The notes: a model not told the origin generated them from the sequence alone. Counted from the first letter of the stretch, positions 3,907 to 32,962 are shown. The stretch is 64,000 nucleotides of DNA from Actinomycetota bacterium (GCA_046565595.1 JBKHYG010000021.1:1455-65454), one strand, 5' to 3'. Made by a program: numbers and translations.

Positions 3907-4398
3907 ATGGAACCTTCGGAAGCCGTCGAAGTGGACCTCGTCGGGGTCCGCGTCGAACTACCGATGAATAATCCCATCGTCCTGCTCCGCGAGCGCGAGG
4001 GAGAGCGATTCCTGCCCATCTATATCGGGCCGACAGAGGCCCAAGCCATCGCCTTCGCTCTTCAAGGCATCATCACGCAGCGGCCGATGACCCACGATCT
4101 GATGAAGTTGCTGTTCGACGCCCTGGGCGCCCGCGTCGAGAAGGTCGAGGTCACCGACCTCCAGGAAGGAACCTTCTTCGCCGACCTTCACATCGTCACC
4201 AAGGACGAGACCAAGATCATCTCTTGCAGGCCAAGCGACGCCGTTGCTCTGGCTGTGCGCATGGGCGTGAGGCTCTTCGTCCACCCCCATGTCCTTGAGG
4301 AAGCCGGGATCTTGATCCGGGACGAAGACGAGGAGCGCGAGGTCGCCAAGTTCCGCGAGTTCATCGACCAGATCACTCCCGAAGACTTCGCTTCCTGA
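3907..4398 (+). CDS. bifunctional nuclease domain protein (DUF151/BFN family; Rv1829-like)
   Basis: ATG at 3907; conserved RPMTHDLMKLL...ISCRPSDAVALAVRMGVRLFV block typical of DUF151; syntenic position between the two MerR genes. Confidence 0.7.
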   Translation: MEPSEAVEVDLVGVRVELPMNNPIVLLREREGERFLPIYIGPTEAQAIAFALQGIITQRPMTHDLMKLLFDALGARVEKVEVTDLQEGTFFADLHIVTKDETKIISCRPSDAVALAVRMGVRLFVHPHVLEEAGILIRDEDEEREVAKFREFIDQITPEDFAS

Positions 4399-5056: not shown

Positions 5057-6418
5057 GTGGAGTTCACCCCACATACCCCGGACGATATCGACAGCATGCT
5101 TGCCGTCATCGGGGCCGGATCCATCGATGAGCTCTTCGAGGTGATCCCTTCCGAGATCCGGCTCGACCGTCCGCTGGATCTTCCTGCCGGCAAGAGCGAG
5201 ACGGAGGTGTTGCGGGAACTCGGTGCTCTCGCCCAGACGAACCTCGACTGTGACCGCCTGATCTGTTTCGCAGGCGCCGGCACCTACGACCATCGCGTCC
5301 CGTCGTTCGTCTGGCCGCTACTTGGCCGTGGTGAGTTCCTGACCGCATACACCCCCTACCAACCCGAACTCTCGCAAGGTGTGCTGCAGGCGCTCTTCGA
5401 GTACCAGTCGATGGTCTGTGCGATGACCGGCATGGCGGTCAGCAACGCGGGCCTGTACGACGGAGCGACCGCTCTGGTCGAAGGCGTGAACCTGTCTGTT
5501 GCCGCTACGGGCCATACCGGTGTGGTGATCGCCGGCGCGGTCCACCCAGCCTCACGCAAGGTGCTCGCGACCCAGGGAGCCGGACTCAGCCTGGTCATCG
5601 ATCATGTTCCTTCTTCGCCGACCGGGACCGCAGATCTTGATGCCATACGAGCGGCCGTAGGCGAGCAGACCGCCGCCGTGGTCGTTCAGCATCCGAACCT
5701 GCTCGGCTGCCTGGAGCAGGTCGATCAGTTGGCCGAGATCGCACACTCTGTCGGCGCGCGCCTGGTCTGTTCCTTCGATCTGGCCTTGAGCGGCGTGCTC
5801 ACCTCGCCAGGCGACCTCGGGGCTGATGTGGTCGTCGCAGACGGAGGGTCCTTCGGCAATCATCTGAACTTCGGCGGACCTTCGACCGGGATCATCGCGG
5901 TGGGGGAGAAGGACATCCGTCGTCTGCCCGGACGGCTCGTAGGCGAGACCAGAGACGCTGCCGGTCGTCGCGCCTTCGTCTTGACGCTGCAGGCGCGCGA
6001 GCAGCACATACGACGCGAGAAGGCGACCAGCAACATCTGCACCAACCAGACGCTGAACACCTTGGCGGTCGCGATGACGATGGCGTGGCTCGGGCCTGCC
6101 GGGCTCCGCGAACTCGGCGAGCAGTGTGTGGCAAGAGCCCACTATGCGCGCGAACGCCTCATCGATGTGGCGGGAGCAGAACCTGTGACGACAGCGGCCT
6201 TCGGCAAGGAGTTCGCCGTGCGCCTGACTGCCGATGCGGCGACCGTGGTCTCGAGGGCTTCTGCCGACCATGTCTTGGCGGGGGTTCCGCTCTCGCGCCT
6301 AGAGCCGGACGCTCATCCGAACGATCTACTGGTCGCGGTAACCGAGCAACGCAGCCGCGATGACATCGACACCCTCGCCGAAGCGGTCGCGCGCGCATCC
6401 AAGGAGACAGCGCGATGA
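5057..6418 (+). CDS. gcvPA: glycine dehydrogenase (decarboxylating) subunit 1 (N-terminal half of P-protein)
   Basis: 453 aa; conserved GcvPA N-terminus and YTPYQPELSQG motif; ATGA overlap with the next gene. Confidence 0.9.
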   Translation: MEFTPHTPDDIDSMLAVIGAGSIDELFEVIPSEIRLDRPLDLPAGKSETEVLRELGALAQTNLDCDRLICFAGAGTYDHRVPSFVWPLLGRGEFLTAYTPYQPELSQGVLQALFEYQSMVCAMTGMAVSNAGLYDGATALVEGVNLSVAATGHTGVVIAGAVHPASRKVLATQGAGLSLVIDHVPSSPTGTADLDAIRAAVGEQTAAVVVQHPNLLGCLEQVDQLAEIAHSVGARLVCSFDLALSGVLTSPGDLGADVVVADGGSFGNHLNFGGPSTGIIAVGEKDIRRLPGRLVGETRDAAGRRAFVLTLQAREQHIRREKATSNICTNQTLNTLAVAMTMAWLGPAGLRELGEQCVARAHYARERLIDVAGAEPVTTAAFGKEFAVRLTADAATVVSRASADHVLAGVPLSRLEPDAHPNDLLVAVTEQRSRDDIDTLAEAVARASKETAR

Positions 6419-8735: not shown

Positions 8736-10222
8736 GGCTTCGATCTCCGGTAACGAGACTCGTGCGAGATCATGCCCACTGCCAGCAGGAACAGCGCGAT
8801 CTCGAGCATGCGACCGAACCGCGCGTACCAGGTGCGGCCTTGCACCGGACGCAGACCCTGACGGATCACGGTTTCGGCGAAGTGGTCGGTGGCTTGCAGG
8901 ATCCGGCCGTCGGGCATGATGAATGCGCTGATCCCGGTGATCGCGGCTTGGACGACAGGCTTGCCGTGTTCGCGTGCACGCATCCGGCTCATCTCCAGAT
9001 GCTGGCGACTCGCCTTGCTGCGGCCGTAAGAGGCGTTGTTGGTAGAGACCACGATGATCTCGGCGCCGTCGGCAACTATGCGACGGATGTCTCGTGCGTA
9101 GGTGGACTCGAAGCAGATCGCGCTTCCGATCGTCACACCATCGACGGTGACCACACCCGGACCTTCGCCGGGCGCAAGGTCCCCGGGCAGGTATTCCTCG
9201 AGGATCGGCAGCACGCGGCGCGGCCATCCCCACGGGACGAACTCACCGAAGGGCACTAGATGCCTCTTGGCTACCTGATCGGTGATCCCCTGGGGCGTCA
9301 CCAACAGGTTGGTATTGCGTTGCTTCCCGTCCGCGTCGTCGGTGATCGCTCCAACCAGGAAGGGAACACCGAGGCGGCGGACCTGCTGGAGGGTCTCGGC
9401 GAACAGCTCTGGCATATCAGCAGGGTCACGGTCGTAGGCGTTCTCCGGCCAGATGACGAGGTCCGGCGCATCCTCGCTCGAGATGGTCGCGGTCTGGCGG
9501 AGATGCTGGCGGACGATGATCTCGTCCTCTGGACCCACACGACCGCGACGCGGCAAGCCGATCAGCCGTTCCTCGGGGCCACTGCCTTGGACGATCGCTA
9601 CCTCGAAGGGCTCGCGCTCTGCTCCTACGCCTATAGGAAGCACCCCGGCCAGCGTCGGAGTGATGTAGGCCGCGACGATCGCCACCAATATGGGTCTTCG
9701 CAGGCAACGAACGACGCTGAACAGCAGCGCGGCCTCTAGGACCATCCAGAGGCTAACCAGCCTCACTCCGCCGAAGGCGGCGAGGTTGCCGAGCGTGTCG
9801 CCGCCGGAATAGCCGAGCGACCCCCACTCGAACCCTCCGAGCGGGACCGTCGCGCGCGCCAGTTCGATCGCAGCGAACCAGACCGCCACCTGGAAGGCTC
9901 CCCCCGGCTCTCTCCTCCCCCACCTGCCCCATGCAGCCAGCCACCCGAACCCCGCGAGCCAAGCAGCCTGTGAAGCGGCGAGAGCCACCACCGCGTACCA
10001 ACCGAACGGCCCTAGCCACGCCAGCATCGGTCCGAAGAAGGCCACTCCGAACACGGCGCCGATCAAGGCACCCTGTCGGGGAGGGATGTCCCGCAGCAGC
10101 CACAGCAGCGCGACGATGCCGAGGAACCCCCCTGGGGCGAACACCGTCTGCGGGAAGGCCGTCTGGCCTAGGACGCCTGCCACCGCCGCGGCGAGGAGCC
10201 GATGCGGCAGACGCAACATCAT
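8732..10222 (-). CDS. lnt: apolipoprotein N-acyltransferase
   Basis: N-terminal multi-TM region followed by a C-N hydrolase (nitrilase-type) domain with VIWPENAYD; ATG at 10222 abuts the stop (10224-10226) of the upstream gene. Confidence 0.8.
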   Translation of the reverse strand: MMLRLPHRLLAAAVAGVLGQTAFPQTVFAPGGFLGIVALLWLLRDIPPRQGALIGAVFGVAFFGPMLAWLGPFGWYAVVALAASQAAWLAGFGWLAAWGRWGRREPGGAFQVAVWFAAIELARATVPLGGFEWGSLGYSGGDTLGNLAAFGGVRLVSLWMVLEAALLFSVVRCLRRPILVAIVAAYITPTLAGVLPIGVGAEREPFEVAIVQGSGPEERLIGLPRRGRVGPEDEIIVRQHLRQTATISSEDAPDLVIWPENAYDRDPADMPELFAETLQQVRRLGVPFLVGAITDDADGKQRNTNLLVTPQGITDQVAKRHLVPFGEFVPWGWPRRVLPILEEYLPGDLAPGEGPGVVTVDGVTIGSAICFESTYARDIRRIVADGAEIIVVSTNNASYGRSKASRQHLEMSRMRAREHGKPVVQAAITGISAFIMPDGRILQATDHFAETVIRQGLRPVQGRTWYARFGRMLEIALFLLAVGMISHESRYRRSKP

Positions 10223-10223
10223 C

Positions 10224-10502
10224 TCAGGCGCAATCCTGGCAGTACTTCTTCTTCGGGTCAGCCATCTGAGAGCGATGCTTGACCAGGAAGCATGATTGGC
10301 AGACGAACTCGTTGGCCTGCTGAGGCACGGCACGCTCGATCAACTGCTCGGTACGCGAGTCATCCACGACCGGCTCGTCGTCGTCCTCTTCGTCCCCTTC
10401 GCTGATCTCTTCGATGCTGCCGACGCCTTCTTCGGTCACATCGTCGTCGTCATCGTCCTCTTCGGACTCGAGATCGGGCTCTACGACCTCTTCCTCTGCC
10501 AC
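10224..10502 (-). CDS. conserved actinobacterial acidic protein with C-terminal Cys4 zinc-ribbon (DUF4193-like)
   Basis: 92 aa; poly-Asp/Glu N-terminus; C-terminal FVCQSCFLVKHRSQ...KKYCQDCA. Confidence 0.55.
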   Translation of the reverse strand: MAEEEVVEPDLESEEDDDDDDVTEEGVGSIEEISEGDEEDDDEPVVDDSRTEQLIERAVPQQANEFVCQSCFLVKHRSQMADPKKKYCQDCA

Positions 10503-10608
10503 TAACTCTCCTTCGTTGCGTACCTTCCGGCGGGCGCGTTATAGCCGACACCAGGCGCCTCCGCAACGGAGCGGGCATATCCCACCCCACCTATAGGCTC
10601 CCGCCGAG

Positions 10609-11574
10609 ATGGTGAAGTTGCGGGCAGACGCCTGGGATCCCTCCTATGGCCGGGGCTTCGAGGCCCTCGAGGAGGCCTCCGAGACGGCGGTAGATACCAG
10701 CGTGGAAACAGGCTGGGACCAGCCGCTACCTGGATCAGCCGACCCCTCGATGCTGACCTCGCTGGTCGACGGCACGATGCGTCTAGAGATGCGGCTTGTC
10801 GCGTCCGAAGGGCTGCTGCGGGCTCCGGGACTGATCGGTTCGGTCGCGGCCGGATCGTGCGAAGTGGGTCCTCGCAGCGGATTCGGAGCGATCGAGGTTC
10901 GCCGCCTGGCGATCACCGGGGCTGATCTTCGCGTGCCGGGCTTCGATCTCGAGGTAGGAGGCTCGATCCTGTCCTTCGAACCTGTCTCGACGCCTGGGAA
11001 CGATGACCTGGCTGTGATGAATGCCCTCCGAGATGCGATGACAGATCTCGAGGTTTCCGTGGCGACCACGCTCGCATCCGATCCGGACCGACTGGTGATC
11101 GTGGACGGGCCTCTGCGGTTCACCACTCCCACGCAAGCTCCGATCGTCGGGCTCATCAAGAGAGCCGTGCGGCGATATCTGCCGGACGCCGAGGAAGCGC
11201 TGCTCCCCCGTCTGGATCCCGGCCAGAGGACGCCATTGTTCGCCCTCGGCGACCCGCAGGCCGGCAGTCACCGCTACTCGTGGTACTCCCGCATCGGCAT
11301 CCCGCGGATCGGCCAGCACGAGCTCTCTGGCCTGGTCCGTTGCGAGGTCGCCGCCGCCCTAGGTCTCCCAGAAGCCAGACGGCTGGCTGATCTCGTCGCT
11401 GGCAACCTCCCCCGCTTGGGTGGGCGACCAGACGATCCCCGCACGCCGCAGAACCTGCTGCCCGTCTCTGGGCTCGAGCGCAAGCTCCGGCATCATCTAG
11501 GCGACCGGGCACTGGTCGCTCGGGCCTGCAGCAGGTGGATCACCCAGATCGCACGCCAGGAGGCGACAGTATGA
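10609..11574 (+). CDS. nurA: NurA-like 5'-3' nuclease
   Basis: 321 aa; two DG[ST/P] motifs (SLVDGTMRLE, LVIVDGPLRF) as in NurA; first gene of a 4-gene coupled operon; TGA overlaps the herA ATG (ATGA). Confidence 0.55.
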   Translation: MVKLRADAWDPSYGRGFEALEEASETAVDTSVETGWDQPLPGSADPSMLTSLVDGTMRLEMRLVASEGLLRAPGLIGSVAAGSCEVGPRSGFGAIEVRRLAITGADLRVPGFDLEVGGSILSFEPVSTPGNDDLAVMNALRDAMTDLEVSVATTLASDPDRLVIVDGPLRFTTPTQAPIVGLIKRAVRRYLPDAEEALLPRLDPGQRTPLFALGDPQAGSHRYSWYSRIGIPRIGQHELSGLVRCEVAAALGLPEARRLADLVAGNLPRLGGRPDDPRTPQNLLPVSGLERKLRHHLGDRALVARACSRWITQIARQEATV

Positions 11575-13265
11575 CCCAGCAGCACACATCTGAGCCCGTC
11601 GGACTGGTCCAAGGGGTCGATCCGGCGTCACCACTCACCTTCTGGGTAGCGGTCTCTCCTGACTCCTACCTGCAGTTGGATGACGCGGTGTTGATCGATT
11701 CCGAGGTGCCCGGACGCGGACGGGTCCGCATCTCTGGGATAGTCCAGGATGTTCGCGCTCAGCACGAAGGCGCCAGTCTCGCCTCGGATGTGTTCCTGGC
11801 CGACCAGGATGTCCTGCCGGTGCAGACAGCCGTCGACGCTCAGGTCGTCGTGACCCGCGTCTCCCCCGAGATCTTCGTGCCTCCTATGCCCGGCCTACCC
11901 GCGTTCCGGGCGCGGGGCGGCGAGCGTGATGAGGTCCTTGGTTTCAGCACCATCGAGCGGCGCCTGCCAGCCGGATTGTCGCGAGACGGCGAACCGATCT
12001 GGCTCGACCTCGATTTCCTCGACGGTAAGAAGGGCGCGCACATCAACATCTCAGGTATCAGCGGGGTTGCGACCAAGACCTCGTACGCGTTGTTCCTGCT
12101 GTACGCGCTCTTCCACTCTGATGCTCTGGGTCCTACGGCAACCAACGCGAAGGCGCTGATCTTCAATGTGAAGGGCGAGGATCTGCTCTGGCTCGACCAC
12201 CCGACGAACTCGGCTTCCTTCGATCCCACCCAATACGAGGCGCTCGGACTGAAGCCTGGACCCTTCGAGAGCGTCGGCCTATGGGCACCTGCCCGCAGAG
12301 GAAGCGGAGACACTGTGCTGCCGGCGGTATCGGGCAGACAGCGTGGCGTGACCGCCTACGGCTGGACGGTCCGCCAGTTCGTAGAGGACCGGCTCCTTCG
12401 TTTCCTGTTCGCGGAGGCCAACGACGCCAACTCCCAGATCGGGGATCTCGTCGCGAGGATCGAGACCGCTCTGGAACGCGGCCTCCGACCCCCTACCGAA
12501 GACGCGTCTTCGATGGTGACCGAGGAAGGCGTGGTCATCGGTTCGCTGCGAGATCTGGTCGCTCACATCGAGGCGCGTCTAGACGCTGAAGATCCTGCCT
12601 ACCTCGGTCGGATCGCTCCGGGTACCGCCAGCGCCTTCATCAGGCGACTGAACGGAGTCGTCCCAGAGGTTGAGCAACTGATCCTGGATTCCTCGGTCGA
12701 GCATCCCGAGCGTTATCAGATCGATTTCGATGGAGCCCAGGTGACCGTGGTGGATATCCACAACCTCAAGGATCGAGCCAAGAGGTTCGTGACCGGCGTG
12801 GTCGTACGCCGCATGTTCGAGGCCAAGGAGGACACCGGCGAACGCGAGCCGCTGAACTTCCTGGTGCTCGACGAACTGAATCGCTACGCGCCGCGAGAAG
12901 GTTGGAGCCCGATCAAAGAGATCCTGCTGGATATCGCCGAGCGCGGCCGCTCGATGGGCATGATCTTGATCGGCGCCGAACAGACGGCAAGCGAGGTCGA
13001 ACGCCGCATCGTCGCGAACTCGGCCTTCCGGGTCGTTGGGCGCCTGGATGCAGCCGAGTCCGCGCGGAGCGAGTACGCATTCCTGCCTGCGGTCACCCGC
13101 GCACGCGCCAGCATCCTCGAGCCCGGCTCGATGGTGCTGCAGCAGCCCACCATCCCGATCCCCCTTCAGTTGCGGTTCCCCTTCCCCGCTTGGGCCACGC
13201 GCAAGGAAGAAGCCTTGATCGAGACAGATGACGAGGAACTCTTCAAGCGGGCCGGCGGACGATGA
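11571..13265 (+). CDS. herA: HerA/FtsK-superfamily ATPase (HerA-like; DUF87-type)
   Basis: N-terminal barrel-like region, deviant P-loop GISGVATKTS, Walker B FLVLDELNRYAP, arginine-finger-like ERGRSMGMILIGAEQ; ATGA overlaps with nurA and sbcD. Confidence 0.7.
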   Translation: MTQQHTSEPVGLVQGVDPASPLTFWVAVSPDSYLQLDDAVLIDSEVPGRGRVRISGIVQDVRAQHEGASLASDVFLADQDVLPVQTAVDAQVVVTRVSPEIFVPPMPGLPAFRARGGERDEVLGFSTIERRLPAGLSRDGEPIWLDLDFLDGKKGAHINISGISGVATKTSYALFLLYALFHSDALGPTATNAKALIFNVKGEDLLWLDHPTNSASFDPTQYEALGLKPGPFESVGLWAPARRGSGDTVLPAVSGRQRGVTAYGWTVRQFVEDRLLRFLFAEANDANSQIGDLVARIETALERGLRPPTEDASSMVTEEGVVIGSLRDLVAHIEARLDAEDPAYLGRIAPGTASAFIRRLNGVVPEVEQLILDSSVEHPERYQIDFDGAQVTVVDIHNLKDRAKRFVTGVVVRRMFEAKEDTGEREPLNFLVLDELNRYAPREGWSPIKEILLDIAERGRSMGMILIGAEQTASEVERRIVANSAFRVVGRLDAAESARSEYAFLPAVTRARASILEPGSMVLQQPTIPIPLQLRFPFPAWATRKEEALIETDDEELFKRAGGR

Positions 13266-14416
13266 GGTTCCTGCACACCAGCGATTGGCACATCGGGCGA
13301 ACCATCCGGGGTCGTGACCGGATGCAGGAAGCGGCCGCGGTGCTGGACGAGATCGTCGAGATAGCGGCGGACGCTCGACTCGATCTGGTGATCATCGCCG
13401 GCGACCTGTTCGACGCTCGGGTCCCTCCCGCCGAAGCAGAGAAACTCGTCAATCAGACGCTCCTACGCTTGCGGGATACGGGCGCTGCGGTCGTCGCCAT
13501 AGCCGGAAACCACGAGAGCCAGCCTCGGCTGGAAGCGGTCGTGCCGCTGTTCGCCGAGCTGGGCATCCATCTGGTGACCAAGGTTCGCTTGCCCGGTGAC
13601 GGAGGCATCATCACCGTGCCCTCGCGCTCTGGCGAAGAGACAGCCGAGATCGCATGCATCCCGTTCGTACCCGAGCGCGCCTTCGGCGACGCTTCCTCGG
13701 TCTTCGAAGACATCGGTAGTTGGCCGGCGGCTTACGCCGACCAGATGGCTCGGTTGTTGCAGGTCTTCGCCTCGCACATGACGCCGGGGACGCTCCATCT
13801 GATGGCGGCGCATCTGCTGGCGAGCGGCGCCAGGTTCGGTAAGGGTGGCGGTGAACGAGAGGTGACTCTCGGACCTAACTATGCGGTAACTGCATCCTCG
13901 CTCCCACCGACGCTCACCTACCTCGCGTTGGGACACATCCATCAGCCGCAGCGGGTGAAGGGCGCGCCCAGCCCCACCTGGTATTCGGGTAGCCCCTGGA
14001 TGCTGGATTTCGGCGAAGAACGCGACGACAAGTCGGTCCAGATCGTCGAGGCGTCCGCAGGCAAGCCGCCAAAGGTCGAACAGGTCCGGCTGGGCAGGCA
14101 TCGGCGGCTGGTCACCCTCAAGGGGCCCCTCTCAGAGTTGCTTTCTGAAGCCGAGGCTCACGACGAGCACTATGTCCGGCTGCTGGTAGAGCTGGACGGG
14201 CCCCAACCGGGCCTGGCGGACCAACTCCGTGACGCCTTCCCGGGAGCGGTCACCATCACCCCCATCTATCCAGCCGTCGACGAGCAAGAACACGAGCCGA
14301 TCGAGGGCCTGCCGATGCGGGATCGTTTCGAGAGGTTCCTTTCGACCAAAGGCATCGAGGAAGCCGCATGGCTGATGTCAGGCTTCGACGACCTGATCGA
14401 GGGGATCGATCTTTGA
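13262..14416 (+). CDS. sbcD: DNA repair exonuclease SbcD / Mre11-family phosphoesterase
   Basis: Calcineurin-like phosphoesterase motifs DWHIG, IAGDLFD, GNHES, GHIH; 384 aa. Confidence 0.85.
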   Translation: MRFLHTSDWHIGRTIRGRDRMQEAAAVLDEIVEIAADARLDLVIIAGDLFDARVPPAEAEKLVNQTLLRLRDTGAAVVAIAGNHESQPRLEAVVPLFAELGIHLVTKVRLPGDGGIITVPSRSGEETAEIACIPFVPERAFGDASSVFEDIGSWPAAYADQMARLLQVFASHMTPGTLHLMAAHLLASGARFGKGGGEREVTLGPNYAVTASSLPPTLTYLALGHIHQPQRVKGAPSPTWYSGSPWMLDFGEERDDKSVQIVEASAGKPPKVEQVRLGRHRRLVTLKGPLSELLSEAEAHDEHYVRLLVELDGPQPGLADQLRDAFPGAVTITPIYPAVDEQEHEPIEGLPMRDRFERFLSTKGIEEAAWLMSGFDDLIEGIDL

Positions 14417-16926
14417 GGATCCTGTCGCTCCGGATCGAAGGCTTCACCTCTCTGCGCGACGAGGTGCACCTCGACCTTCGAGATGCCGACCTGTTCGCGA
14501 TCACCGGACCGACCGGAGCAGGCAAGACATCCCTGCTGGATGCGATCACCTACGGCCTCTACGGCAAGATCGAGAGGGTCGAGGACACCAGCGATACCTC
14601 GATAACCGATCTGATCAGTCATCATCGGGATCAGGCGAAGGTCCTGGTCGAGTTCGAAGCCAGCGGACACACCTATCGGGTGGTGCGTCGCGTCTCCCGC
14701 AAGGGACAGACGAAGATCCTGTTCGAGCAACTCCAGCCAGACGATTCCTGGGCACCGGCCTGCGAAGGAGCCGACCGGGTCAAGGATGCCACTGCGGCGA
14801 TCACCCGGATCATCGGCGTCAACTATGAGGGCTTCACGCGTGCCGTCCTGCTGCCGCAGGGACGCTTCGCGCAGTTCCTGGTCGGCAAGCCGAGCAAGCG
14901 TCGAGAGATCCTTACCGAGCTCCTCGGGTTGAAGAGGATCCAGGATCTAGGCGGACGCGCCCGAGAGATCGGCAGGGACTGCCTGTCTACCGCCGCATCC
15001 AAGCAAGGGTTCCTCGAGACGACCTTCGCCGACGCGACGCCTGAACGCTTGGACGAACTCATCGGATCCGCCAAGGATGCGGGGCACCGTCGCGAACAGC
15101 TCGAAGAACTGCTGCGAGACCTGCAGACCCTCGAGAAGCGCACCACCAAGGTTGCGCAAGACGCCGAACGCGCAGCCAAGGTGTCATCCGCGTTGCGACG
15201 CTCTGCGGAACAGATCCGGGATCTGCAACTCCAGATCGGGTCCGGCAAGACCAGGTTGATCGAGCTGGATGAAGCCTTCTCCAAGGCTGAGGAGCTCCGC
15301 AAGGAGTCAGTCTCCGCATCCGCGAAGGCCGAGTCCGAGTTGGCGGCACACATCGAAGCCTATGGGGATGCCTCTAGCTTGAGGACCCTGGATCATGCCG
15401 CCGCGGACATGCGGAGAGCACGAGAACAGCTCTCGATCCTGGATGAGCGTCTAGCCAAAGGTGCAGAGACGCTCTCAGCTGATGAAGCACGCGCAGCAGC
15501 AGCCGAAGCCGAGGTCTCGGCTGCCACCCAAGATCTAGAGCGGGCGAGCAGCGCACTGCGGCTCGCCCGAGGAGAACTCGAGCAGGCGCGGACTTCGGAC
15601 ATGGTCGGTGCGCTGTGCACCGAGCTGCATCCAGGCGATCCATGCCCGATCTGCGCATCCCCCCTCTCGACGGTCCCGCCGGCCTCCGATCGAAGCGAAG
15701 CGGCAGCACTAGCGGTCACCGAAGCCGAGCGCATCGAACGCCGAGCGATCGACGAACTGACGCAGGCGTCCTCATCGCTAGAGAGAGCAAGGGCAACCGT
15801 CGAGCGCGACCGCGACCTCATCGAAACGATCACCGCTGACCGAGCCGAAGCTCAACGGCTCTACGACGAAGCAGCCAGCCGCCTACCGGAGCCTCTACGG
15901 GACTCCCAGGATGCTTCGGCCAAGGTCGCCGCGCTCATCCAGGAGCGTACGCATCTGACCGACCAGGTGGCCGGCTTCGACCGAGCCGTTCGCCAGACCG
16001 AGCAGGCGATCACCGGTGTGAGCAGTGCAAGAGAGGCCGTGCGAGCAGACATCGCAAAGGCCGAAGCCCTGCTCGAAGCTCTGCCCGCTTCCCTCCCCCT
16101 GGACGAGACTGCCGAGATCATCGGCGTTCCAGCACCCCCGGCCATCGTTCCCGCGACGCTGCAGGAGTTGGCGGACAAGGTGGATGAGGTAGCGGCGTCG
16201 ACCGCCCAAGCCAAAGACGCCGTGGATCGTGAAGCCCGCGAGCTATGCGCGGATCTGGTGGGACCGACCGAGGATCTCGCAGACGCATTACGGACCGCAT
16301 CGATCGAGAGGGACGCGGCCCTCCGCGCAGAGACCACCGCCAACGATGAGCACGCTCGGGTCTCCAAGCAGATGAAGGAAGCGGACACTCTGCGTGAGGA
16401 GATCTCGGAACTCGATCGACGCGCCGAGTTGTTCACCGAGCTCGGGAAACTGTTGCAGGGGAACGAGTTCCTCCAGTTCCTCCAGGAAGATGCGATGCGC
16501 AGCCTGGCGACCAGCGCCGGGGACCACCTTGCCAGGTTGTCCTCTGGCCGTTACAGGCTGCGCTTCGAAGACAACGATTTCGTCGTCGTCGATACCTGGA
16601 ACGCTGACGAGCGAAGGTCGGCCCGGACGCTGTCAGGGGGCGAAACCTTCCTCGCGTCGCTATCACTGGCCCTCTCGCTGTCAGACGAGGTCGTCCGACA
16701 CGGGCTGGGTACCTCGGTCAGACTCGAGAGCCTGTTCCTCGACGAAGGCTTCGGGACGCTCGATCCCGAAGCTCTGAACGAGGTCGTGGATGCTCTAGAG
16801 AACCTGGCCAGCGGGTCGCGTGTCGTCGGGGTGATAACCCACATAGCCGAGCTAGCTCAGAGGTTGCCGGTCCGGATCGAGGTCGAGAAGCGGCCCGAAG
16901 GCAGCCGGGTCCGTCGGGTCGGTTGA
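14413..16926 (+). CDS. sbcC: DNA repair ATPase SbcC / Rad50-family (SMC-like, zinc hook)
   Basis: TTG start at 14413 overlapping the sbcD stop (TTGA), giving MRILSLRIEGF; Walker A GPTGAGKTS; long coiled-coil; zinc hook CPICASP (15643-15654); signature LSGGETF; Walker B LFLDEGFGTLD. Confidence 0.85.
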   Translation: MRILSLRIEGFTSLRDEVHLDLRDADLFAITGPTGAGKTSLLDAITYGLYGKIERVEDTSDTSITDLISHHRDQAKVLVEFEASGHTYRVVRRVSRKGQTKILFEQLQPDDSWAPACEGADRVKDATAAITRIIGVNYEGFTRAVLLPQGRFAQFLVGKPSKRREILTELLGLKRIQDLGGRAREIGRDCLSTAASKQGFLETTFADATPERLDELIGSAKDAGHRREQLEELLRDLQTLEKRTTKVAQDAERAAKVSSALRRSAEQIRDLQLQIGSGKTRLIELDEAFSKAEELRKESVSASAKAESELAAHIEAYGDASSLRTLDHAAADMRRAREQLSILDERLAKGAETLSADEARAAAAEAEVSAATQDLERASSALRLARGELEQARTSDMVGALCTELHPGDPCPICASPLSTVPPASDRSEAAALAVTEAERIERRAIDELTQASSSLERARATVERDRDLIETITADRAEAQRLYDEAASRLPEPLRDSQDASAKVAALIQERTHLTDQVAGFDRAVRQTEQAITGVSSAREAVRADIAKAEALLEALPASLPLDETAEIIGVPAPPAIVPATLQELADKVDEVAASTAQAKDAVDREARELCADLVGPTEDLADALRTASIERDAALRAETTANDEHARVSKQMKEADTLREEISELDRRAELFTELGKLLQGNEFLQFLQEDAMRSLATSAGDHLARLSSGRYRLRFEDNDFVVVDTWNADERRSARTLSGGETFLASLSLALSLSDEVVRHGLGTSVRLESLFLDEGFGTLDPEALNEVVDALENLASGSRVVGVITHIAELAQRLPVRIEVEKRPEGSRVRRVG

Positions 16927-16933
16927 ACCGTGA

Positions 16934-17233
16934 TCATGCTCCCGGGGACCCAGACGGATCTACCCCGGGGTGTTCCCCTGCCACGGTCCCGAGGATCCGA
17001 GCACACTGTTCCTGGGTCAACTGTGGCGGACAAGTCGGGATGCCGCCGGTGCGTTCGTAGTCGCAGATGATCTGGCGTTCAGCGGCCGTGGGAGCCTCCG
17101 CATCGCAGGTGTCCCGCTCTAAAGCGACGGCAAGCAAGATCGCCACGACCAGAGATCCAAGGACCGCCCCAACCAGGAGCATCCGTCGGCGCCTGTCTCG
17201 TCTCGCTTCCGCGGTATCAGCCATCCCCATCAA
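16934..17233 (-). CDS. hypothetical small membrane-anchored protein
   Basis: 99 aa ORF with a hydrophobic segment LLVGAVLGSLVVAILLAVAL; ATGA overlap with the stop of the upstream acyl-CoA dehydrogenase. Confidence 0.3.
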   Translation of the reverse strand: MMGMADTAEARRDRRRRMLLVGAVLGSLVVAILLAVALERDTCDAEAPTAAERQIICDYERTGGIPTCPPQLTQEQCARILGTVAGEHPGVDPSGSPGA

Positions 17234-18390
17234 CCTCTGGCCAAGGCGCGTCCGATCACGACACGCTGGATCTGATTGGTTCCTTCGACGATCTGCAAGA
17301 CCTTCGCCTCGCGCATGTAGCGCTCGACCGGGAACTCTTCCACATACCCATAGCCTCCGAGGACCTGAACCGCGTCGGTGGTCACCTTCATGCAGGTGTC
17401 CGTCGCGTTCAACTTGGCCATCGCAGCTTGCGGCGAATACGGCTGGCCAGCGTCCCGCCGGGCGGCTGCCGCTCGCACCAACGACCTCGCTCCCTCGATG
17501 GCGGTAGCCATGTCGGCCAGCATGAAACTCAGCCCCTGCTGCTCGATGATCGGACGCCCGAACTGGACCCTCTCGCGCGCATAGGCCACCGCGGTCGTTG
17601 TCGCTTCGCGAGCCAACCCAACCGCACCGCTAGCGATCCCTAGCCGGCCCCCGTCCAAGGCAGCCATCGCGATACGGAACCCTTCGCCTTCTCGTCCGAT
17701 GAGGTGGTCTGCGGGGAGACGCACATCGTCGAAGACCATCTGCGCGGTGGGCGAGGCGTTCATGCCCATCTTGTGTTCCAGTTTGGCGCGCGTCACGCCC
17801 TCGGTATCGGTCGGCACGAACAGGCAACTGATCCCCGTAGCGCCCTCCCCGCCGGTACGGCAGAAGACCACGGCGTAAGCGCTCTCTCCACCGTGGGTAA
17901 CCCAAGCCTTGGTTCCGTTCAACACCCAGGAGTCGCCGTCTCTGCCCGCTCGGGTGGTCATCGCGGCCGCATCAGACCCAGAGCCGGGCTCGCTCAGGCA
18001 GTACGAACCCACCCACTCTCCTGCCGCCGCTCGCGGTACCCATGCGTCCCTCTGATCGTCGGTGCCGAAGGCGATCGTCGGGAACATGGTCAAGACCTGG
18101 ACGCTCACGCCTAGGCCGACCGCGAGCATGGCGGCAGCGAGCTCTTCGATCGCTGCCAGGTAAGAGGTCTGTGAGACTTCGCTGCCGCCCCACCGTTCGG
18201 GATAGGGAAGCGCGAGCAGCCCGGCCTCTCCGAGGGCCGTGAAGGCCTTGCGCGGGAAGACCGCTTCCCGCTCCCAGATGTCCGCTTCAGGGCGGATGAC
18301 TCGGTCTGCTACCTCTCTGGCGAGCCCGGCGACCTCCGCATCCTCGGGCGGATACCCGATGACCGGATCAAGGATGCCTGCGGGTTCCAT
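17230..18390 (-). CDS. acyl-CoA dehydrogenase
   Basis: ACAD fold motifs (YCLSEPGSGSDAAAM, WVLNGTKAWVTHGGES, C-terminal QIVEGTNQIQRVVIGR); start at MEPAG (18390) chosen over the longer ORF. Confidence 0.8.
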   Translation of the reverse strand: MEPAGILDPVIGYPPEDAEVAGLAREVADRVIRPEADIWEREAVFPRKAFTALGEAGLLALPYPERWGGSEVSQTSYLAAIEELAAAMLAVGLGVSVQVLTMFPTIAFGTDDQRDAWVPRAAAGEWVGSYCLSEPGSGSDAAAMTTRAGRDGDSWVLNGTKAWVTHGGESAYAVVFCRTGGEGATGISCLFVPTDTEGVTRAKLEHKMGMNASPTAQMVFDDVRLPADHLIGREGEGFRIAMAALDGGRLGIASGAVGLAREATTTAVAYARERVQFGRPIIEQQGLSFMLADMATAIEGARSLVRAAAARRDAGQPYSPQAAMAKLNATDTCMKVTTDAVQVLGGYGYVEEFPVERYMREAKVLQIVEGTNQIQRVVIGRALARG

Positions 18391-19036: not shown

Positions 19037-19827
19037 AGCCACAACGCCAAGGGCGTCTGGTGAACCTCGATCCGTAGTGGGCCTTCGATGCCAACATGCG
19101 CGTCGACCGCCAGGAACACCGGCCCGTCGATCTCGATCAGATCCACCAGATGCGCTTGGAATAGTTCCGGTCCGACGCGGTCGCCCCGCGCGATCTTCCT
19201 CCACACTCCGCCCTCACGGAACCTCCCGGCTCGCATGATGCCGACATCTAGAGCTCCGTCGTAGGGAACGGCCTTTGGTGCGACTCGAGTGTCCAATAGG
19301 AACTGGCCGTTGGAGATCACCATCGAAGCGCCCCGCAGCGAGTGTCGAGACGATCCCGGGTCTTCGCGTCCGGGGCGTCGATCCACCTCGGATAGCACCA
19401 GAGGTGTGTCGTCTCCCTGTTGTTCGACCGTCGCTCCGACGACGAGATGGGCCGATGAGCCACCGCTACCAGTGACCCGCCCAACATCGAGGTTCGCTGA
19501 CAGCAACCGCTGAGGATCCGCCGGGATCGCGTGTCCAGACAGTCCAAAGGTGGCTGCCAGCCCGTTCGGCCCGAGCGGGCGAAGTGCGACCGTCGCCGGT
19601 CGGGCGGAGGCCGCGAATGGGTCATCCAGCCGCGGCGCATCCAACGGTGAGAGGCATTCGCCGTACTCCAACAGGGCCGACACGGCGATGTGTAGGTACG
19701 GATCCTCCCCCCAGATGCCGAACCATCGCTCGCCGTCGTGCAAGGCATCCGCGATCCGATGCGCGAGCTCGTCCGCCGGAACATGCTCGCCCGTCGCAAG
19801 CCGCTCGGCGGTCAGTACCAGGCTCAT
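19033..19827 (-). CDS. diacylglycerol-kinase-catalytic-domain-like protein (possibly degenerate; no GGDGT motif seen)
   Basis: C-terminal DAGK_cat-like block YDGALDVGIMRAG...LIEIDGPVFLAVDAHVG...PLRIEVHQTPLALW and RPLGPNGLAATFGL (PLGTGNDFAR-like); canonical GGDGT not identifiable. Confidence 0.4.
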   Translation of the reverse strand: MSLVLTAERLATGEHVPADELAHRIADALHDGERWFGIWGEDPYLHIAVSALLEYGECLSPLDAPRLDDPFAASARPATVALRPLGPNGLAATFGLSGHAIPADPQRLLSANLDVGRVTGSGGSSAHLVVGATVEQQGDDTPLVLSEVDRRPGREDPGSSRHSLRGASMVISNGQFLLDTRVAPKAVPYDGALDVGIMRAGRFREGGVWRKIARGDRVGPELFQAHLVDLIEIDGPVFLAVDAHVGIEGPLRIEVHQTPLALWL

Positions 19828-22445
19828 CTCTCTAGCTCCAGATCGACCACGCCCCTGCGGAGGAGCTTCGAGGCTTCGTCGGCGACCCTGGCTACCTGCG
19901 GATCGGCTTCGCTGGTCGCCAACTGCCGAAGCAGGTCATCGACCTGCTTCATCCATCGCACGAAGTCCCCCGGCTGAAGTCGCTCATCCAGGATCGAGGT
20001 CTGCAGGTCCTCTCCCCTGGCCCACCAATAGGTAGCAGCGCTCAAGCCATGATCGATGCCGCCCGTCAACTCGACGCGAGCCTCCTCTTCGACCTCCGCG
20101 ATCTCGAGGCTCAGCTTCTTCAGAGAGCGGATCGCATCATGCACATCTTCGGTCGGGGGTGACTCTGGCGGGCCTTGGCCCGGGCGGGTCTCGTACAGCA
20201 CGCTCGACATCACGGCCGCAAGGCTCGGGGCATCGAGTCGCTGAAGGATCCCTCGCCGAAGGGCTTCCATCACCAGTAGATCCGAGCCAGAGTAGATGCG
20301 GGCGAGGTATCGGCCTGCCGGTGTCAACTCATCCTGGTCGTCCACATAGCCGTAGCGTTTCAAGATCCCGACCACGGCGTCGAAGGCTCGCGCCAACGCT
20401 CCGGTTCGGCGACGGACCTGACGACGCAGCTTCTCGACCTCACCTTCCAACAGTTCGACCTGGCGGCACCAGTGTTCGTGCGCACGGCGGTGCTCACAGA
20501 GTTGCACCGGATCCTCGGGGCCTTCAGAGGGTGATCCATCGAGGCTCGGAGTGGCATCCCTGGGAAGCGGCATGGACGCAAGGACCTCACGGAGAGACTC
20601 GAGGAATCCCGGGTCGCGGGGGCCCTTCCTGGGCAGATCGAGCGCACCTATCGGCGTCGGGGGCTCTTGCAGGATCATCGAAGAGAGCCGGCCCTGCTCA
20701 CCGTGCTCGTAGATGCCATAGCAGCGGAACTCCCCCCGTTTGGTGCGGCGCCGATCGGTGACAACGAACCTGTCACCCGAGACCGCGAGCACATCTCCCG
20801 GCTTCGCGTGCGCCAGGACCTGGTCCACCCGACGCTGCCGATCGGTTCTGCGTCGACGCCGCTGCTCTGCCTCGCTCGACTCGCGCTTGCGTTTCTCGGT
20901 CCACCAACCCCACACATCTCCACACTCGCAGACCAGATGCTCCCGATAGGACGCCAGGAACCGTTCCTGGCGAGCCAGACGCGCCTCGGCAGCTCCGATG
21001 TCCTCGTCTGCCAGGAACTGAGCGAAGGATCGGCCGATCGTTTCGGTCGCAGCGGCGCGATCCATGCGTGCCAGCAGATTGACCGCCATGTTGTAAGAGG
21101 GACGGAAGGCCGAGCGCAGCGGGAATGAACTGCCGCTCGCCAGTTCAGCCAACATGCCCACATCGACATCAGGTTGAGAGAGCACGACCCCGTACCCGAT
21201 CGGATCTATGCCTCGGCGACCGGCACGACCGGTCAGCTGGGTGTACTCGCCCACGGTCAGCAGCGCGTGACCCTCGCCGGTGTACTTGGTCACGCGTTCG
21301 ATGACCACGGTACGGGCGGGCATGTTGATCCCTAACGCGAGGGTCTCGGTCGCGTACACGACCTTCAGCAGTGCCTGGGTGAAGAGTTCCTCGACGGTCT
21401 CCTTGAACAGCGGGATCAGGCCAGCGTGGTGAGCGGCGACCCCCGCACGCAGCGCGGTCTGCCATCTCGCTGCTCCCAGCGCCTCTCGGTCGTTCGGACT
21501 GAGTGGTTCGAGGTTGCGGGCAACGATCTCGTCTATGCGTTCACGCTCTTGGCTAGAGGTCAGTTTGATCCCGCGAGCCAGCACCTCTTCGACCGCCGCT
21601 TGGCACCCTGCGCGGCTGAAGACGAAGCAGATCGCGGGCAGCATCTCGTCGGACTTCAGTCGCTCGATCACCTTCGGACGATCCACGCGCTGGCGTGCCG
21701 GACGGCCTCGACGACCGCCTCGGCCGCGGCTCTCCTGGCGTGCGCGCGGCGGGGCCTCATTGGCTCGGCGAGCCTCACGGCTGGGGCCGCGGCCCGCCTC
21801 ATCCAGCAGAGGGAACAGCGCGCCGCCAGCCATGATCTGGTGCTGGATGGGAACGGGCCGCGATGTCTCCAACACCAGGGCCACATCGCCCCGCAGCGCC
21901 CGTAGCCAGGCGGCGAACCTCTCGTGGTTGCTGACCGTCGCAGAAAGTGCAGCTATCCGAACGCGAGGGTCCAGATGGATGATCACCTCTTCCCAGGTGG
22001 CGCCTCGCTCGCGATCACCGAGGTAATGAACCTCATCCAGGACCACCACGCCCAACCCTCTCAGAGCATCGGATCCTTCGTACAGCATGTTGCGAAGCAC
22101 TTCCGTGGTCATGACCACTATCGGCGCATGTCCGCGGATCTGATTGTCGCCGGTGAGCAAGCCCACCTGCTCCGCGCCGTACCTCTCGGAGAGGTCCCGG
22201 AACTTCTGATTGCTGAGCGCCTTCATCGGCGTCGTGTAGAAGGTCCGGGTGGAAGTTTCGACCGCCAACCAGGCGCCGAACTCTCCGATCACCGTCTTGC
22301 CCGAGCCGGTCGGAGCGCAGACCAGCACGCCATCGCCGGTCAGCATCTCGATGCAGGCTTGCTCCTGGAACCTGTCCATCGTGTACGGCAGCGTGGCGGC
22401 GTAAGCCTCTACCAGCGCCGAAGGGTCCGGACCGTCGAGGGTCAC
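19824..22445 (-). CDS. helY: Ski2-like DEAD/DEAH-box helicase HelY
   Basis: 873 aa; helicase motifs CAPTGSGKT, VLDEVHY, ALSATVSN; position next to tatC as in mycobacteria. Confidence 0.85.
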   Translation of the reverse strand: MTLDGPDPSALVEAYAATLPYTMDRFQEQACIEMLTGDGVLVCAPTGSGKTVIGEFGAWLAVETSTRTFYTTPMKALSNQKFRDLSERYGAEQVGLLTGDNQIRGHAPIVVMTTEVLRNMLYEGSDALRGLGVVVLDEVHYLGDRERGATWEEVIIHLDPRVRIAALSATVSNHERFAAWLRALRGDVALVLETSRPVPIQHQIMAGGALFPLLDEAGRGPSREARRANEAPPRARQESRGRGGRRGRPARQRVDRPKVIERLKSDEMLPAICFVFSRAGCQAAVEEVLARGIKLTSSQERERIDEIVARNLEPLSPNDREALGAARWQTALRAGVAAHHAGLIPLFKETVEELFTQALLKVVYATETLALGINMPARTVVIERVTKYTGEGHALLTVGEYTQLTGRAGRRGIDPIGYGVVLSQPDVDVGMLAELASGSSFPLRSAFRPSYNMAVNLLARMDRAAATETIGRSFAQFLADEDIGAAEARLARQERFLASYREHLVCECGDVWGWWTEKRKRESSEAEQRRRRRTDRQRRVDQVLAHAKPGDVLAVSGDRFVVTDRRRTKRGEFRCYGIYEHGEQGRLSSMILQEPPTPIGALDLPRKGPRDPGFLESLREVLASMPLPRDATPSLDGSPSEGPEDPVQLCEHRRAHEHWCRQVELLEGEVEKLRRQVRRRTGALARAFDAVVGILKRYGYVDDQDELTPAGRYLARIYSGSDLLVMEALRRGILQRLDAPSLAAVMSSVLYETRPGQGPPESPPTEDVHDAIRSLKKLSLEIAEVEEEARVELTGGIDHGLSAATYWWARGEDLQTSILDERLQPGDFVRWMKQVDDLLRQLATSEADPQVARVADEASKLLRRGVVDLELER

Positions 22446-23158
22446 TTGCGTAGGACGAATCGGATGAACAACAACGCCCCTTCGTAGAGGAGATAGAGAG
22501 GCACAGCCAGCATGATCTGGGATAGCGGGTCACCAGATGGGGTCGCAACAGCCGCGATGATGAACATCCCCAGGAAGGCCCACCGTCTCTTGCCGCGCAA
22601 GGTGTCGCTGCCGATCATCCCGACGGCGGCTAGGAACACCAGGATCAGCGGGAACTCGAAACTGATGCCGAAGGCGAGGATCATCAGCGTGACGAAGTTG
22701 ATGTAGTCGTTGAACTGCAGCAACGGCGTGAGGCCGGGCTCGACCGCGAAAGCGAGCAGCCAGTTGATGCCAACCGGCAGCAGCACATACGCGATGAAGG
22801 CGCCTAGAGCGAAGAGCAGCACCGACGCAGCTACGAAGCCGACCGCCCAGCGCTTCTCGTTCTTGCGGAGTCCAGGGGTGATGAATCGCCAGATCTGCCA
22901 GAAGATCACCGGCCAGGCGAGCACGAGTCCCGCGAACGCCGACACCTTGATCTTCAGGAAGAACGCGGTGCCGATCCCGCTCACATATAGGTCGTCTACG
23001 ACGACATCGCCGATCCGGCCGCCCTCTTCCAAGGGCAGGCGCAGCAATCCGAGTATCTGGTCGTAGAAGGCGTAGGCCACACAGGCCAAGACGATCCACG
23101 CGATGATCGCGTAGAAGAGGCGCCGCCGGAATTCCTCGAGGTGCTGGACGACGCTCAT
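22442..23158 (-). CDS. tatC: twin-arginine translocase subunit TatC
   Basis: Six-TM TatC; N-term MSVVQHLEEFRRRLFYAII; start at the internal Met chosen over the longer ORF. Confidence 0.85.
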   Translation of the reverse strand: MSVVQHLEEFRRRLFYAIIAWIVLACVAYAFYDQILGLLRLPLEEGGRIGDVVVDDLYVSGIGTAFFLKIKVSAFAGLVLAWPVIFWQIWRFITPGLRKNEKRWAVGFVAASVLLFALGAFIAYVLLPVGINWLLAFAVEPGLTPLLQFNDYINFVTLMILAFGISFEFPLILVFLAAVGMIGSDTLRGKRRWAFLGMFIIAAVATPSGDPLSQIMLAVPLYLLYEGALLFIRFVLRK

Positions 23159-23223
23159 CGTCCCCTCGGGGTCGCGGCGCCGACGCAGTTTGGGCAACGC
23201 CAACGCCATGGGGCTCGGCTAGG

Positions 23224-27085: not shown

Positions 27086-27146
27086 TCGGGCTCGGTCGGC
27101 TACAGGTTGCGTTCCTGACAGCACGCGAACGGATAGAAGTCACCGG

Positions 27147-30551: not shown

Positions 30552-30591
30552 GGACACAATGTCACCAGACCTCGGATGTCCCCGCAAGCGC

Positions 30592-31950: not shown

Positions 31951-32008
31951 ACCCGGAGGATACGAGCCGACAGGTCCAGACGGGCCAACGCCGCTACCCT
32001 TGCGTCCC

Positions 32009-32962
32009 ATGTTCTGGTTAGCTGCCATCGGATGGCGCGTCATCGACCGGTTCCGTTTCGGCCCGATCGAGATATCTCCTCATGGGATCGGTATCGCGGC
32101 CGGCTTCCTTGCCGGCGGTTCGCTCCTTGCCCGTCGCGCCGAGAGGATCCTCGGCATCCGCAAGGAACACACCTGGAACATGCTCATGTGGGCGATCGTC
32201 GGCGTCATCATCGGCGCCCGGCTGGCCTTCGTGATCGGCAATCCCGACCTGTTCTTCCCCGACGATCCGCTCGGTGTCTTCCGGATCTGGGAGGGCGGCG
32301 TGGCCCTCTACGGAGGCATCTTCGGGGGCATACTCGCCGCGATCCCGTACCAGAGGAAGCATGGGCTGCCTTCGATCGAGCTGCTCGATGCTGCCGCACC
32401 CGGATTCCCGCTCGGCATCGCGATCGGACGCATCGGCGATCTGATCATCGGGGACCACCTCGGGTCCTCGACCGATTTCTTCCTGGGTTACCGCTACCTC
32501 GGCGGTCCTCTGCCTGACCGGACCCTGGCGGTCGGAGAGGTCGTCCACCAGACCGCGCTCTACGACATGCTGATCGCCGCGATCATCTTCCCAGTGGTCA
32601 TGGTGCTATCCCGCCGGCATCTCGCACGAGGACGGCTCATCGCTATGACCGCGATGCTCTACGCGGCGGGCCGCTTCGTGACCGATTTCTCTAGGACCGA
32701 GGTGGCATCCTTCGGTGGCCTCTACGGAACCCAGTGGACCTCTATCGCGCTCATCCTCGCGGGTGCGGCGTGGCTGTCACGCCGCCCGCGACGCGGCTAC
32801 ACGCTCCCGCTGGATCAGCCGCTGCACGAGCCGGCTGTCATCGCCGACGACGAGCCCGATCTTGGCGGCTTCCCTGAAGAAGGACCCAGCGGTGTTGGGC
32901 CCGCTCCGGGCGATGCCTCCGGGGATGACCCTGTCAGTCCCGCCGGGGATCCGCGCAGCTAG
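32009..32962 (+). CDS. lgt: prolipoprotein diacylglyceryl transferase
   Basis: Lgt motifs [31 protein letters not shown]; low-complexity C-terminal tail; start taken at MFWLAAIGW (32009). Confidence 0.7.

Follow-up and report, generated by a model that had tools for sequence, protein, structure and literature searches.

The genes nurA, herA, sbcD and sbcC form a tightly overlapping cluster (positions 10609 to 16926, + strand) in a stretch of 64,000 nt from an uncultured actinobacterium (Actinomycetota bacterium, GCA_046565595.1 JBKHYG010000021.1:1455-65454). The whole stretch is referred to as the window and the positions are counted from its first letter. The cluster is best read as a chromosomal and probably single-transcript operon, whose products would conduct the SbcCD-assisted, HerA-NurA-driven resection of DNA ends. 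A probability of about 0.7 is attributed to this function. The reading is based on the identities of the four proteins, on the conservation of the residues responsible for the nuclease, ATPase and translocation activities, on the linkage of the four genes across relatives, on the housekeeping context of the locus and on a promoter-like motif of the DNA-damage type found upstream of the cluster in the relatives.

Identification of the four proteins

The first gene (nurA, 10609..11574, + strand) encodes a bacterial-type NurA nuclease of 321 residues and the second (herA, 11571..13265, + strand) a bacterial-type HerA hexameric DNA translocase/ATPase of 564 residues. Both were identified by sequence searches against the PDB, since Pfam and NCBIfam had failed to recognise them. 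In the phmmer searches, HerA matches the HerA protein of Deinococcus radiodurans (drHerA, chain 7f6d_B) with an E-value of 5e-129 over its full length (query residues 7-548 against chain residues 12-601), and the profile built from its orthologues (alignment A1) reaches the same protein at 6.9e-163. NurA matches the D. radiodurans NurA (drNurA, chain 7f6d_H) at 5e-16 and the bacterial NurA TM1739 from Thermotoga (1zup) at 2e-7. The corresponding values for the profile of 17 NurA orthologues (alignment A2) are 8.4e-53 and 6.4e-21, respectively. Archaeal HerA and NurA structures in the PDB gave no match at E<=10, either with the single sequences or with the orthologue profiles.

The residues on which the two activities depend are retained. 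The residues W9, D54, K184 and R278 of the window NurA align with W8, D53, K201 and R309 of drNurA, which are essential by mutagenesis (PMC9960219). These four residues, as well as E148 and D166, are invariant in the 17 orthologues, and the motifs LVDGT and IVDGPL are present in the translation. The HerA translation contains the Walker B motif FLVLDELN and the motif ERGRSMG. Its Walker A residues K169/T170, Walker B residues D434/E435 and pore arginines R442 and R499 are invariant in the alignment A1. The two arginines correspond to drHerA R495 and R552, and D434/E435 to the drHerA Walker B. R495, R552 and the Walker B were shown to be essential in drHerA, the pore arginines being needed for translocation (PMC9960219). 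Judged from their sequences, both products look like active members of the bacterial NurA-HerA clade.

The third gene (sbcD, 13262..14416, + strand) encodes a Mre11-family nuclease subunit of 384 residues. It scores 164.9 bits with the NCBIfam model TIGR00619 sbcd (cut-off 77.65), 46.6 bits with Pfam Metallophos (cut-off 21.5) and 35.8 bits with SbcD_C (cut-off 24.4). The phosphoesterase motifs I-V are accounted for by DWHIG, GDLFD, GNHE and GHIH, all of which are present. Bacterial sbcd models score 165-191 bits with this protein, against at most 58 bits for the archaeal Mre11 models. The fourth gene (sbcC, 14413..16926, + strand) encodes a Rad50-family ATPase subunit of 837 residues, counted from the TTG codon at 14413. 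It matches the Pfam families AAA_23 (87.8 bits, residues 5-242), SbcC_Walker_B (residues 727-796) and SMC_N, all above their cut-offs, and contains the Walker A motif GPTGAGKTS, the zinc hook CPICASP (CPIC at about residue 419), the signature LSGGETF and the Walker B motif LFLDEG. With TIGR00618 sbcc it reaches 292 bits in two stretches, below the cut-off of 478.5, and the 837 residues compare with 1043 positions in the model. This shortfall is consistent with a short coiled coil. Genes 3 and 4 are ordinary bacterial-type SbcD and SbcC, both scoring best with the bacterial sbcd and sbcc models.

An earlier note on this DNA had assigned the four genes to NurA, HerA, SbcD and SbcC on the basis of motifs seen in the sequence. 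These assignments are right, as indicated by the matches to drHerA, drNurA and TIGR00619 and by the SbcC Pfam families, and all the motifs quoted for the four genes were recovered in the translations. The description of the module as archaeal-type, on the other hand, has to be abandoned: NurA and HerA belong to a bacterial clade, with no archaeal structure of either protein within the threshold given above, and the best scores of SbcD and SbcC come from bacterial models.

The profile hidden Markov model searches, proposed in the same note as a check, matched the SbcD and SbcC families and missed NurA and HerA, though homology to PDB entries confirms the latter two. For HerA, no Pfam family was found at E<=10 and no NCBIfam family at E<=0.01, hence there is no match to a HerA/DUF87 model. 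The window NurA falls below the cut-off of the Pfam family NurA (PF09376; 13.9 bits against 21, E 0.039), and the NCBIfam scan of this protein returned nothing significant. All 17 NurA orthologues reach PF09376 at E<=1, the best of them at 2.1e-7; this family under-covers the bacterial NurA clade. An annotation gap is therefore apparent, in which Pfam and NCBIfam lack a model recognising this HerA clade and NurA stays sub-threshold. In the public records, including L082 and L083, HerA is labelled 'ATP-binding protein' and NurA 'hypothetical protein', with their neighbours named SbcD and SbcC/SMC ATPase. The window HerA has an exact counterpart in NCBI (100% identity), a protein from a 71.7-kb contig of an Actinomycetota metagenome-assembled genome (MAG), which carries the label 'ATP-binding protein [Actinomycetota bacterium]'. 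Both families are well populated: at E<=1e-10 there are at least 7,900 clusters of HerA homologues and, among 50%-identity representatives, 539 NurA relatives.

Organization of the operon and gene starts

The four consecutive + strand genes, with the coordinates and the 4-bp overlaps that the earlier note had described, are found exactly so in the sequence. The stop and start codons overlap at all three junctions: ATGA at 11571-11574, ATGA at 13262-13265 and TTGA at 14413-14416. The mechanical list of open reading frames (ORF) offers an alternative start for herA (GTG 11535) and an alternative in-frame start for sbcC (ATG 14368). The overlapping starts are preferred for both genes because of three observations. 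The herA ATG at 11571 is preceded by AGGAGG (11556-11561) with a spacing of 9 nt; the homologue alignments of SbcC, translated from the TTG, begin at residue 1; and in the closest relatives (loci L085-L087) the gene callers picked the same starts, with the same lengths. The sbcC TTG is itself preceded by GAGGGG with a spacing of about 9 nt. The 4-bp overlaps of the window recur in the closest relatives and lie at 4320-4323, 6011-6014 and 7165-7168 of L085.

The unit is bounded on both sides. Upstream, an intergenic region of 106 nt (10503-10608) separates nurA from a divergent gene, and downstream only 7 nt lie between the sbcC stop and the stop of a convergent ORF. The G+C content of the operon is 0.64-0.66, the same as in the rest of the window. 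A scan of 10200-17400 for consensus sigma-70 promoters returned 0 promoters, hence none internal to the operon. In the same region, the scan for intrinsic terminators found no + strand site and one terminator-like site on the minus strand, fewer than in shuffled sequences.

Conservation of the cluster among relatives

The scan for relatives considered one genome per GTDB species. At least 594 genomes contain a close relative of the window HerA. Eighty loci were kept, and the window proteins served as tblastn queries to find the four genes in them; wherever the contig is long enough, the genes are almost always clustered. A locus was taken as assessable (n=35) if its sequence extended at least 1.2 kb upstream and at least 6.5 kb downstream of herA. 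All four genes lie on one strand in 34 of these 35 loci, so that a chance association of the genes can be dismissed. Among the relatives, neighbouring genes of the cluster often overlap by 4 or 1 bp, and this applies to each of the junctions.

Two gene orders were found. The order of the window, nurA-herA-sbcD-sbcC, occurs in the Actinomycetota MAGs near the window, in Solirubrobacterales, Chloroflexia, Limnocylindria and Dehalococcoidia, as well as in Dormibacterota, Acidobacteriota, the Gemmatimonadota genus Palauibacter, one 'Proteobacteria' MAG and a plasmid of Sphaerospermopsis (Cyanobacteriota). The order herA-sbcD-sbcC-nurA is that of Acidimicrobiia, Nitriliruptoria, Longispora albida (Micromonosporaceae), Nonomuraea gerenzanensis and a Streptomyces linear plasmid. 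The carriers sampled thus include at least six phyla (Actinomycetota, Chloroflexota, Dormibacterota, Acidobacteriota, Gemmatimonadota and Cyanobacteriota). Cultured actinomycetes are among them, and the cultured carriers named are Salinilacustrithrix flava, Longispora albida and Nonomuraea gerenzanensis. The four-gene cluster is the norm for this HerA clade across several phyla and no peculiarity of the window genome. The earlier note had regarded it as an arrangement that was not characterised. This appears to hold as far as experiments in the literature searched are concerned; the implied rarity does not, given the 34 of 35 loci and the same cluster noted in Oceanithermus (PMC5448004).

The window HerA is closer to proteins of Chloroflexota and Dormibacterota MAGs (63-64% identity; L012, L013, L016, L023) than to those of the Acidimicrobiia and Nitriliruptoria of its own phylum (54-58%; L025-L080), and the gene order splits along the same line. 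This pattern suggests either an old lateral transfer or two ancient lineages of the operon.

Some loci hold inserts of 1-3 kb (1.2-2.8 kb in those tested) between herA and sbcD or before nurA. The possibility of a fifth component was rejected, since the ORFs with a Pfam match within or beside the inserts (3 of 8) are mutually unrelated and lie on the opposite strand; they encode a luciferase-like monooxygenase, PhoX and an EndoU/PrsW protein. In the locus L064, where the partner genes were not detectable, an AlkZ-like glycosylase follows herA.

Relatives are rare on mobile elements. Among 72,556 plasmid records, 6 contain one, and a chromosome of 11.85 Mb is counted among these 6; two phage records gave weak partial matches. 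One of the plasmid carriers is Streptomyces sp. BB1-1-1 (L082), with the herA-sbcD-sbcC-nurA cluster on a 451-kb linear plasmid (NZ_CP134205.1, 413745-429376). There the cluster adjoins genes of the TIGR02680, TIGR02678 and DUF2397 families and an ImmA/IrrE peptidase gene, a rare mobile context that is possibly defence-associated.

The promoter-like motif upstream of the cluster

A motif resembling the RecA-NDp promoter emerged only through the alignment of the upstream regions of the relatives. In the related Actinomycetota its conserved form upstream of nurA is TGTC(G/A)(G/C)NG-N8-TANNNT, and 6-8 nt separate the end of its -10-like hexamer from the start codon in the order-A loci. Among the closest relatives, the element at the aligned position is TGTCCCAG-N8-TAACAT in L086, TGTCCCGG-N8-TACCAT in L087 and CGTCCCAT-N8-TAGCAT in L085. 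More distant Actinomycetota carry TGTCGGTG-N8-TATCAT and similar forms, as in L008 (TGTCGGTG-ACCGGACG-TATCAT), and the Acidimicrobiia show the variant TGTCAC(A/C)C-N8-TACNNT before herA. The exact form TGTC-N12-TANNNT adjoins the start of the first gene in 24 of 82 loci, compared to 0.18% of random 90-nt windows taken from the same loci.

The consensus of the RecA-NDp promoter, attributed to Gamulin and co-workers in 2004, is reportedly TGTC(R)GTG-N8-TANNNT. The RecA-NDp promoter of SCO6735 agrees with it, reading TGTCAGTG-N8-TACGGT-N6-ATG, and has the same form as the motif of the relatives (PMC5087735). Promoters of this type are the target of PafBC, the activator of the LexA-independent DNA-damage response (PMC6789036, PMC8223512). 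The motif present in many actinobacterial relatives therefore resembles a DNA-damage promoter of the RecA-NDp/PafBC type and supports a damage role for the family.

The window itself contains a degenerate RecA-NDp-like element at 10578..10599 (+ strand), TATCCCAC-N8-TAGGCT, which was recognised by alignment with the relatives and is a candidate promoter. Between the end of its -10-like hexamer TAGGCT (10594-10599) and the nurA ATG there are 9 nt, a spacing that points to a nurA transcript with little or no leader. The LexA/SOS box, reportedly GAAC-N4-GTTC, has no site upstream of nurA, the nearest one being inside herA.

The genes for PafBC, the regulator of the DNA-damage response, are also present in the window, at a distance of about 8 kb from the operon.

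Comparison with known systems

In the usual accounts, the HerA-NurA resection is archaeal and bacteria rely on RecBCD, AddAB, AdnAB or RecJ (PMC7752040). In Archaea, the HerA hexamer and the NurA dimer constitute a resection machine that works with Mre11-Rad50 (PMC9960219, PMC5448004). The archaeal herA-mre11-rad50-nurA operon of Sulfolobus and Pyrococcus clusters the same four roles, presumably co-expressed, in a gene order that differs from that of the window. Bacterial and archaeal HerA/NurA proteins share less than 20% identity, and NurA contacts HerA through an ionic interface in the bacterial complex, as opposed to a hydrophobic interface in the archaeal complex (PMC9960219). The window SbcCD is likewise of the bacterial type, unlike the archaeal Mre11-Rad50. 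On the evidence of these protein sequences, it is only the operon logic of the window cluster that resembles the archaeal one.

The closest characterised counterpart is the NurA-HerA complex of D. radiodurans (DR_0837/DR_0836; PDB 7F6D, 7WRW, 7WRX; Yang et al. 2023, PMC9960219). Both proteins are homologous to those of the window over their full length and nurA also precedes herA. The conserved positions comprise NurA W8/D53/K201/R309 and HerA R495/R552 together with the Walker B, and the two HerA proteins share the same unusual Walker A, GISGVATKTS. The window NurA is shorter than drNurA (321 against about 349 residues), with several deletions. The Deinococcus nurA-herA pair is not placed beside sbcCD (PMC5448004), whereas in the window it forms one four-gene unit with sbcD-sbcC.

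Oceanithermus profundus has the same four genes in the order nurA-hepA-sbcD-sbcC, in which herA (hepA) is followed by sbcD and sbcC (Blesa et al. 2017, PMC5448004). This bacterium belongs to another phylum (Deinococcota), and its cluster was described as genomic context and not studied. The authors interpret it as an archaeal-like architecture for double-strand-break repair (PMC5448004). Homologues of NurA and HerA were also recorded in Actinobacteria, Cyanobacteria and Firmicutes in a review (PMC8708640). The window cluster is thus already known in kind and is itself ordinary, the kind being little studied.

The mycobacterial AdnAB, as well as RecBCD and AddAB, do the same predicted job, which is the generation of 3' tails at double-strand breaks. 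These are UvrD-like helicase-nucleases, from protein families unrelated to NurA-HerA, and none of the three is encoded within the 64-kb window.

Proposed function and alternative explanations

The proposed resection would proceed in a sequence of steps modelled on the characterised complexes. SbcCD, the bacterial Mre11-Rad50, would recognise and trim DNA ends that are broken, hairpin-capped or blocked by protein. The opened and cleaned end would then be handed to HerA-NurA, as was proposed for the archaeal Mre11-Rad50. The HerA hexamer is predicted to thread duplex DNA into the NurA dimer, and NurA would split the strands and degrade the 5' strand, so that a single-stranded 3' tail becomes available to RecA. 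In the D. radiodurans complex, the HerA hexamer translocates the duplex into the NurA dimer, where a pin-like motif of NurA separates the strands; cutting of the 5' strand depends on translocation and leaves a 3' tail in vitro (PMC9960219).

Several points weigh against this function for the window operon. The literature searched contains no experiments on any member of the four-gene arrangement, and the single transcript is considered probable from the gene overlaps and orientation alone. The upstream element of the window retains the -10 but has a broken core, with TATC where the relatives have TGTC, and strict searches for the RecA-NDp motif in the window yielded neither a site close to the operon nor an enrichment. 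The two bacteria studied show conflicting phenotypes: knocking out nurA-herA raises the resistance of D. radiodurans to ultraviolet (UV) light and mitomycin C about 10-fold, whereas the hepA mutants of Thermus thermophilus are sensitive to UV and heat and defective in competence and DNA donation (transjugation). The biological role of the bacterial NurA-HerA is called controversial by the authors of the structural work (PMC9960219).

Such phenotypes can also be accommodated if HerA-NurA, instead of promoting recombinational repair, restrains or redirects it, through over-resection or by antagonising RecJ/RecFOR, or if it serves DNA uptake or donation, SbcCD being merely a co-expressed end-processing nuclease. 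The approximately 10-fold gain in UV and mitomycin C resistance of the D. radiodurans double knock-out and the defects of the T. thermophilus hepA mutants in natural competence and transjugation speak for this explanation, as does the interaction of drHerA with RecJ (PMC4663267). It is nevertheless judged unlikely. Deinococcus and Thermus may be atypical, since the linkage to sbcCD, usual in the other carriers, is missing in both; the near-obligate linkage to SbcCD and the damage-type motif fit repair better; and the product of the enzyme in vitro is a recombinogenic 3' tail (PMC9960219). An older proposal from comparative genomics regards the HerA clade as a DNA pump for the segregation of chromosomes or replicons. 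The membership of HerA in the FtsK-HerA superfamily agrees with it, but the closest characterised homologue conducts nuclease-coupled end resection (PMC9960219) and the genes are linked to SbcCD instead of par, ftsK or division genes, which makes a pump of this kind the most improbable of the explanations considered.

The earlier note had also offered a HerA-based defence module that had recruited SbcCD. Such a module would degrade foreign or unprotected linear DNA, acting against phages or plasmids. HerA-family ATPases do occur in defence systems, and the Streptomyces sp. BB1-1-1 linear plasmid places the cluster beside the TIGR02680/TIGR02678/DUF2397 genes and the ImmA/IrrE peptidase gene. 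The PADLOC HerA models match the C-terminal ATPase core of the window HerA weakly (E 6e-8 to 5e-3; mad8 at 7e-9), and the HerA-like ATP-binding proteins of PDB 8xau, 8yho and 9c1m appear at E 0.004-0.01. These matches, however, span about 110 residues in the case of PADLOC (best HerA model at 6.4e-8, residues 388-493), in contrast to the full-length match to drHerA at 5e-129. The four window proteins obtained no strong score against the 5,027 PADLOC models; NurA has no PADLOC match, the partners of HerA are SbcCD and no typical effector partner was seen. The housekeeping position is conserved in the closest relatives, the G+C content is native, relatives are very few among plasmid records (6 of 72,556) and phage records (2), and the motif of the relatives resembles a damage promoter. 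The defence role was rejected, PADLOC having given nothing beyond weak matches to the ATPase core, and we consider it quite improbable. The conserved synteny, the near-absence from plasmids and phages and the weak, partial PADLOC matches indicate a vertically inherited housekeeping operon and not a defence island.

The resection of DNA ends, preferred for the window operon, may be part of something more general, which is put forward here tentatively. The bacterial HerA-NurA clade is nearly always linked to sbcCD, in at least six phyla sampled and, from the literature, in Deinococcota. It might represent an ancient and widespread bacterial pathway for the resection of double-strand breaks, damage-inducible in Actinomycetota through a PafBC/RecA-NDp-type promoter, in which SbcCD hands ends to HerA-NurA as the archaeal Mre11-Rad50 does. 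Deinococcus and Thermus would then be atypical through the loss of the linkage, and this loss would explain their puzzling phenotypes. The pathway would possibly be the main resection machine in such lineages, replacing RecBCD, AddAB or AdnAB. A phylum-spanning unit missed by standard annotation, together with a frequent damage-type motif, provides a testable hypothesis for the function of the bacterial NurA-HerA. The cultured carriers Salinilacustrithrix flava, Longispora albida and Nonomuraea gerenzanensis are candidates for testing this role. The value of these observations rests on the comparison across relatives more than on the window itself.

Genomic neighbourhood

The gene content of the window is typical of the actinobacterial core genome, with gcvPA, gcvPB, a glycosyltransferase gene, lnt, an acyl-CoA dehydrogenase gene, helY, tatC and the Pup-proteasome genes. 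In the closest relatives (L085-L087), where HerA is 75-79% identical, the layout consists of the GT2 glycosyltransferase and Lnt genes (fused in L087), a small upstream ORF and then nurA-herA-sbcD-sbcC on the other strand. Beyond the cluster, L085 and L086 have the acyl-CoA dehydrogenase gene, and in L085 and L087 sbcC is followed by a small ORF on the minus strand. Partial synteny is seen in the more distant Actinomycetota L008, L011 and L017. This context argues for a vertically inherited operon in a housekeeping setting.

Two small ORF border the operon. The first (10224-10502, - strand) is divergent from nurA and upstream of lnt, and encodes an extremely acidic protein of 92 residues with runs of D/E; the ORF in the matching position carries PF13834 (DUF4193) in L085 and L086. 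The second (16934-17233, - strand) encodes 99 residues with a hydrophobic N-terminus and several cysteines, and overlaps the stop of the acyl-CoA dehydrogenase gene by 4 bp. It has counterparts of similar size in L085 (96 residues) and L087 (97 residues) and no Pfam match.

Further downstream, a complete Pup-proteasome neighbourhood extends over 24212-39166 on the - strand. It contains pafC (24212-25132), pafB (25132-26154), pafA (30592-32043), dop (35848-37350) and mpa/arc (37361-39166), and has helY (19824-22445) and tatC (22442-23209) next to it. Between pafB and pafA lies a gene (27147-30677, - strand) for a protein of 1176 residues with 13 stretches of RTX calcium-binding repeats (HemolysinCabind), unexpected in this otherwise conserved locus. 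A protein of 483 residues (46977-48428, - strand) contains two HYR domains, a type of domain better known from eukaryotic extracellular proteins.

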